Of a stretch of 448 nucleotides of DNA, positions 1-448 are shown piece after piece. The notes under the pieces were generated by a model. The model was not told the origin of the DNA and ran no database searches. It was given only the letters and a program-made list of their open reading frames with translations. The stretch's first letter is position 1. Every line of letters starts with the position of its first letter. Made by a program: the position numbers and the translations under genes. Source of the stretch: Escherichia coli (GTDB lineage: Bacteria; Pseudomonadota; Gammaproteobacteria; Enterobacterales; Enterobacteriaceae); the NCBI RefSeq assembly GCF_003334255.1, contig NZ_QOWU01000239.1; one strand, 5' to 3'.

Positions 1-448
1 ACAATTTTCCGTTGTTCTCGTCAATGAACGCCGTTCTTTCTGCACCGGTCAGACTCTTCAGCTCTGCGTGATACTGCGCAACCTCTGTCATCCGGTCGTA
101 CATCTTCTGCTGGTCAGCATACGGCATCACCTCACCTGAAATTTTCCCCAGGAAGGGCACCTGCTGCTCCGGTATATCAATACCATTCAGCGATTTCACC
201 GCCGCATCCGTGGTTTTGGAAATGAAGCGCCCTGTCCCTCCGGAGATATAGTCCACCCAGTATTTCAGCGATTCCGGTGTGATATCCACCGCGCCGGGAC
301 GGTACTGGCTGCCACCTGAGAACGCATTCAGCCAGGATGCAAACGCCTTGTACGCTTCTGGCGTTGAACGTCTTCCCAGCTGGCTGTCAGGTTTTGGTGT
401 ACCAAACGGCATGTTCTCCTGGTAAATCTGCGCCCCCATGAAGTTTTC
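1..448 (-). CDS. Internal fragment of a protein-coding gene, partial at both ends (149 complete codons; frame set by codon 448-446, last complete codon 4-2). Product unknown: hypothetical soluble protein.
   Basis: Seen in sequence: a single minus-strand frame is open across the entire window, while the other two minus frames and all three plus frames contain stop codons (e.g. plus-strand TGA at 25-27, 69-71 and 137-139). Third-position GC is enriched over the overall ~54% GC. Codon usage is enterobacterial-like (CTG dominant for Leu; CCG, GCG and CAG frequent). Neither a start nor a stop can be placed within the window. Product identity was not recognised; no homology search could be run. Confidence 0.85.

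Follow-up and report, generated by a model that had tools for sequence, protein, structure and literature searches.

The 448-nt stretch of Escherichia coli DNA analyzed here, referred to at its full length as the window, lies within a single large phage gene. It is 100% identical to Escherichia phage GER2 (as recovered by megablast) and to a prophage of E. coli 2015C-3121, in which it falls inside one 8,379-nt coding sequence (CDS) (accession no. WP_062863647.1; annotated as an "LPD38 domain-containing protein"), the minus strand of the window starting at nucleotide 7741 of that gene in frame 0. At an identity of at least 90%, the window was found in 186 phage records, almost all of them Stx-converting phages (e.g., AU5Stx1, of the genus Traversvirus in the Sepvirinae), and 424 of the 5,426 complete E. 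coli genomes likewise contain it at this level. Minus-strand frame 1 is free of stops across all 149 codons of the window and is its sole long open frame. No open reading frame (ORF) longer than 48 aa occurs in the other window frames, and the plus-strand ORFs (≤48 aa), being antisense to the conserved coding frame, were set aside as unsupported. The features of the window are as follows.

1 to 448, minus strand: internal coding segment of the polyvalent protein gene of Stx phages, codons 2581 to 2729 of its 2,792 (from 100% identity and the stop-free frame)
149 to 448, minus strand: part of the LPD38 domain inside the window, residues 2581 to 2680 (from the Pfam scan, coordinates converted)
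437 to 439, minus strand: ATG codon of Met2584, internal, in a conserved NENFMG motif (from codon position and homologue columns)
416 to 421, minus strand: CAG GAG codons of Gln2590-Glu2591, with AGGAG at plus 416 to 420
413 to 415, minus strand: AAC codon of Asn2592, the 3-nt "spacer"
410 to 412, minus strand: ATG codon of Met2593, internal, nonconserved (from codon position and homologue columns)

The feature under study is the element at plus positions 410 to 420, which reads CATGTTCTCCT (reverse complement, AGGAGAACATG). An earlier note on this DNA had described it as a Shine-Dalgarno (SD)-like pentamer 3 nt ahead of an in-frame ATG, and rereading of the sequence bore out that description exactly: on the minus strand, AGGAG (the complement of plus 416 to 420) is followed by the 3-nt spacer AAC and then by the in-frame ATG (the complement of plus 410 to 412). 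The pentamer consists of the last five bases of the codons CAG GAG (C-AG GAG), which encode Gln2590 and Glu2591. The other in-frame ATG, at plus 439 to 437, is preceded by GAAAACTTC and lacks an SD-like sequence, as had likewise been stated.

The protein to which these codons belong was delineated by Pfam scans of three overlapping pieces of its 2,792 aa, which recovered the following domains.

Residues 1050 to 1199: LPD5 (E = 2.8e-45)
Residues 1360 to 1439: LPD1 (E = 2.3e-23)
Residues 1749 to 1838: MuF_C (E = 1.5e-17)
Residues 2475 to 2680: LPD38 (PF18857; E = 1.7e-48; positions 875 to 1080 of the C-terminal 1,192-aa piece)

An end-to-end match was also obtained to PHROG 616, a profile of 2,793 positions with no assigned function, together with a weaker match to phrog_10089 ("DarB-like antirestriction"; E = 6.6e-27). 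Polyvalent proteins, which occur in phages and in conjugative elements, have been described by Iyer, Burroughs, Anand, de Souza, and Aravind (2017; PMC5512222). Several LPD and effector domains are here combined in one 2,792-aa ORF encoded by phages and prophages (mostly Traversvirus among the 186 phage records), and the LPD5-LPD1-MuF_C-LPD38 architecture is that of this class, which includes the P1 DarB-like proteins; the likeness belongs to the host gene and not to the flagged motif. Domains of the MuF family mark virion-associated proteins, and LPD1 to LPD40, LPD38 included, are listed in the same study among domains "whose precise functions remain elusive" (PMC5512222). From the MuF_C domain and this description of the family, we infer that the present protein may be packaged in the virion and delivered with the DNA.

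Placing the window in this gene bears directly on one of the options raised in the earlier note, namely, that the ATG at plus 412 to 410 is the true start of a separate gene, with 413 to 448 being upstream or overlapping sequence. The SD-like pentamer and the ATG are all that speak for this option. The flagged ATG is codon 2593 of the parent gene (codon 2584 being the other in-frame one), and 2,592 in-frame sense codons, i.e., 7,776 nt of coding sequence, lie upstream of it in what is recorded as one CDS in both RefSeq and GenBank, so that the ATG does not open an ORF. The homology detected with PHROG 616 and with the Pfam LPD38 profile runs through the site without a break. Moreover, the frame remains open as far back as the fetched DNA reaches in each of six viral loci that are more distant: this gives >600 codons of upstream sequence in five and, up to the edge of the contig, 115 codons in the sixth (L061). 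Coding sequence running on well upstream in the same frame is the very observation that the earlier note had named as refuting this option. We therefore rejected a separate gene start at this position, and its probability is next to nil.

The comparison with relatives points the same way. A protein search seeded with residues 2440 to 2792 recovered 52 relatives with identities of 29 to 100%, and each of these carries LPD38 apart from a single hit spanning no more than 26% of the query. With 40 of them aligned, the column of Met2593 contains Phe in 18 and Met in only 5, with nine other residues distributed over the remaining 17. The neighboring columns are better conserved at the amino acid level for Glu2591 (33/40), Asn2592 (28/40), and Pro2594 (32/40); Gln2590, which supplies the first part of the pentamer, is not conserved (Gln in only 9 of 40). 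The column of Met2584 holds Met in 20 and Phe in 10 of the 40. None of 39 homologues begins at the Met2593 column; short database entries (275 to 600 aa) were considered as natural starts and discarded, as they are partial sequences at contig ends or fragments that start elsewhere.

Variation is also seen among close relatives. In 51 near-identical viral contigs, codon 2593 is ATG in 43 and ATA (Ile) in 8, the gene being otherwise intact in the latter; this is a natural G-to-A polymorphism at window plus position 410, the third base of the codon. Ile also occupies position 2593 in a protein cluster (97% identical; 685 sequences). AGGAG itself does not vary among the close relatives. In a relative of ~70% identity (L068) the corresponding stretch reads TAC CAG GAG AAC TTC, with the pentamer kept and no start codon after it. 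Retention of AGGAG in L068 without a start codon is what would be expected if the pentamer only spells Gln-Glu, and its invariance in the close relatives, together with its presence in that one ~70% relative, is expected from their low divergence and from the 96% preference of the gene for CAG (see below). No SD-like sequence was found at the equivalent site in the six more distant viral loci.

L068 and a second locus, L069, differ from the E. coli gene in another respect: in each (3940 to 4001), gene calling divides the polyvalent gene in two, one part encoding a 2,253-aa protein with LPD5-LPD1-MuF_C and the other a 475-aa protein with LPD38. The split is caused by a deletion of 1 nt with respect to the E. 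coli gene (AAGGTGTGGAAAGAG against AAAACCT-GAAAGAG) near codon ~2301, outside the window, and two independent read sets (SRR7343883 and SRR5278778) both show it. It could reflect a frameshift that makes the gene a pseudogene, an error of assembly, or a split that is tolerated at the junction of the MuF_C and LPD38 modules. As the break lies near codon 2301 and is unrelated to codon 2593, it was dismissed as a natural module boundary at the flagged motif, and it likewise lends nothing to a gene start there.

We then considered the element as a signal for initiation within the longer ORF. Its complementarity to the anti-SD sequence is that of an SD-led start: the AGGAG is predicted to form a 5-bp duplex with the 3' end of 16S rRNA at -7.4 kcal/mol, which is stronger than the -5.9 kcal/mol predicted for the GGAG of the annotated gene start (GGAG, a 5-nt spacer, and ATG). 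The spacing is different from that of such a start: the spacer is 3 nt (AAC), short of the usual range of about 5 to 9 nt and of the optimum of ~7 nt given for AGGAG (PMC6107199; for the concept of aligned spacing, see PMC5303271). Most of the AGGAG and AUG is unpaired or weakly paired in the predicted local fold, which is no more stable than that of shuffled sequence (z = -0.29). A comparison of the window with Rfam gave nothing at E ≤ 1, and neither strand showed a promoter- or terminator-like site.

With a perfect match to the 5-nt SD core, the -7.4-kcal/mol predicted duplex, and an in-frame AUG in weakly structured RNA, the AGGAG-N3-AUG element might occasionally recruit 30S subunits and give rise, at a low level, to a 200-residue C-terminal fragment (Met2593 to Glu2792) beside the full-length protein. 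We regard this as very unlikely. The spacer is well under the optimum, and Met2593 is a mid-domain residue of LPD38, so that a product starting with it would have just half of that domain. The start codon is replaced by Ile in 8 of the 51 close contigs and is commonly Phe in the homologues (18/40), none of which begins there, and the motif occurs at chance frequency (see below). In addition, AGGAG before an AUG is not depleted within ORFs, and internal mRNA may be shielded from initiation (PMC6107199).

In-frame internal starts that yield nested products are known, as in the alpha and beta forms of IF2 from infB, A/A* of phiX174, and S107/S105 of lambda. What these share with the flagged site is an SD-like element and an in-frame start codon within a longer ORF; in contrast, their internal starts are conserved, properly spaced, and located at domain boundaries, none of which holds for the site in question. 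Judged on the sequence, the chance that the site has a selected function of the internal-initiation kind is slim. In a more specific version, weak initiation at this internal AUG would, in the Stx-phage lineage of E. coli, produce a fragment of ~200 residues, comprising the second half of LPD38 and the tail, and this fragment would have its own role, e.g., in the incorporation of the polyvalent protein into the virion; we consider it highly improbable. If it were true, the internal fragment would be a lineage-specific innovation, absent from the relatives with Phe or Ile at position 2593.

How often such a motif should arise by chance was assessed with a null model built from 2,000 synonymous-codon shuffles of the 8,379-nt gene, the protein being held fixed. 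The gene contains 11 occurrences of AGGAG against an expectation of 9.5 ± 2.7, and a single occurrence of AGGAG followed 3 to 10 nt later by an in-frame ATG against an expectation of 1.1 ± 0.85, with 75% of the shuffles reaching the observed value. Thus, neither SD-like motifs nor their combination with an in-frame ATG is enriched in this gene over synonymous-codon shuffles. Pairing with the anti-SD at least as good as that of the flagged site is available to 355 of the 8,366 overlapping 13-nt windows of the gene (about 4%). The codon usage of the gene is consistent with such an origin: CAG accounts for 96% of Gln codons and GAG for 43% of Glu codons, giving a probability of about 0.41 that a Gln-Glu pair is spelled CAGGAG, and five of the six Gln-Glu dipeptides in the gene are spelled in this way. 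In a G-rich, CAG-preferring gene, Gln-Glu routinely makes AGGAG, and an SD look-alike beside an internal Met is expected background. In-ORF AGGAG before an internal AUG forms a known background class (2018, PMC6107199; Diwan and Agashe 2016, PMC4943179), with which the present motif shares both its ordinary-codon origin and its expected frequency; we find no material difference between them and regard the flagged motif as one instance of that class.

The other option that had been raised, a site of ribosome pausing, would have the AGGAG pair with the anti-SD of elongating ribosomes and slow translation, with selection maintaining the pause for folding of LPD38. An SD-like motif does lie within the ORF and is kept in the close relatives and in one relative of ~70% identity. 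Against this, the density of AGGAG in the gene equals the synonymous-shuffle expectation, Gln2590 is found in only 9 of 40 homologues, and the distant loci lack an SD-like sequence at the site, so that the motif is not kept beyond what coding and codon usage predict. The profiling evidence for SD-dependent pausing has itself been questioned: in PMC6107199, the excess of SD-containing ribosome footprints is attributed to a technical artifact (citing Mohammad et al. 2016), and other assays are said there not to have identified SD-like sequences as pause sites (citing Borg and Ehrenberg 2015 and Chadani et al. 2016). We thus set the pausing option aside as extremely unlikely.

A third function known for SD-like elements within genes is the stimulation of programmed frameshifting. 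In prfB, an SD-like element lies 3 nt upstream of the shift site. The same 3-nt distance recurs here, and the AGGAG could in principle act as the upstream stimulator of a prfB- or dnaX-like shift. However, the window contains no in-frame slippery heptamer of the form X XXY YYZ, no stop occurs in frame 0 at that point, the +1 frame closes after 30 codons and the -1 frame after 10, and homology in frame 0 runs on to the end of the protein. With neither a slippery site nor an open alternative frame, a role as frameshift stimulator was excluded, and its probability is negligible.

Taken together, these observations indicate that AGGAGAACATG is almost certainly plain coding sequence for Gln-Glu-Asn-Met (codons 2590 to 2593), with no separate function in starting, pausing, or recoding translation. 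This is the reading that the earlier note had favored, an internal Met with the AGGAG contributed by CAG GAG, and it now stands on the 2,592 upstream codons and on the poor conservation of the Met, while the alternatives of a real start and of a pause site offered beside it have fallen away. The resemblance to a ribosome-binding site is a by-product of the amino acid sequence and the codon usage of the gene. Translation would begin at the annotated start 7,776 nt upstream, the use of which is suggested by the annotation and by the length of the homologues. That the site probably has no role of its own in start, pause, or recoding is argued by its nonconservation, wrong spacing, chance frequency, and mid-domain position. 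The analysis thus removes a candidate start or pause site and assigns the window to an internal part, toward the C terminus, of a large polyvalent protein of Stx-converting phages.

The surroundings of the annotated start have a bearing on how this gene might be transcribed, and one further feature, outside the window, was recorded there.

Locus L003, 8883 to 8902, minus strand: terminator-like hairpin GCCCGACCATCGCGTCGGGC with a run of seven T, shortly before the gene start at 8863

The hairpin and its seven T lie 19 nt upstream of the annotated ATG and close the upstream gene, and no sigma-70-like promoter was detected near the annotated gene start. With a hairpin before the gene and no promoter detected, transcription of the giant gene would need read-through (e.g., by late antitermination) or an unrecognized promoter.

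Several minor observations were made on the prophage and on other copies of the gene. The polyvalent gene closes the gene series of the prophage, and 221 nt separate its end from yfdC, a chromosomal gene (L001, 6639 to 6861; L003, 1 to 485); no tRNA gene was found in the gap between the prophage and yfdC. E. coli 2015C-3121 has three copies of the window sequence, and this strain therefore carries several related prophages. Upstream in the same prophage (L003, 12171 to 14569) are a gene for a YadA-like family protein, a Hok/Gef fragment, an IS1A insertion, and a truncated tail-tip fiber gene, and these are signs of local rearrangement in the tail region. In two IMG/VR contigs (2529292909_000016 and 2529292910_000009; L053 and L054, ~2283), the polyvalent gene is truncated after codon ~2700, at window plus ~89 (minus strand ...TACGACCGGAT|), and is followed by unrelated AT-rich DNA; this truncation is the end point of a deletion or rearrangement.
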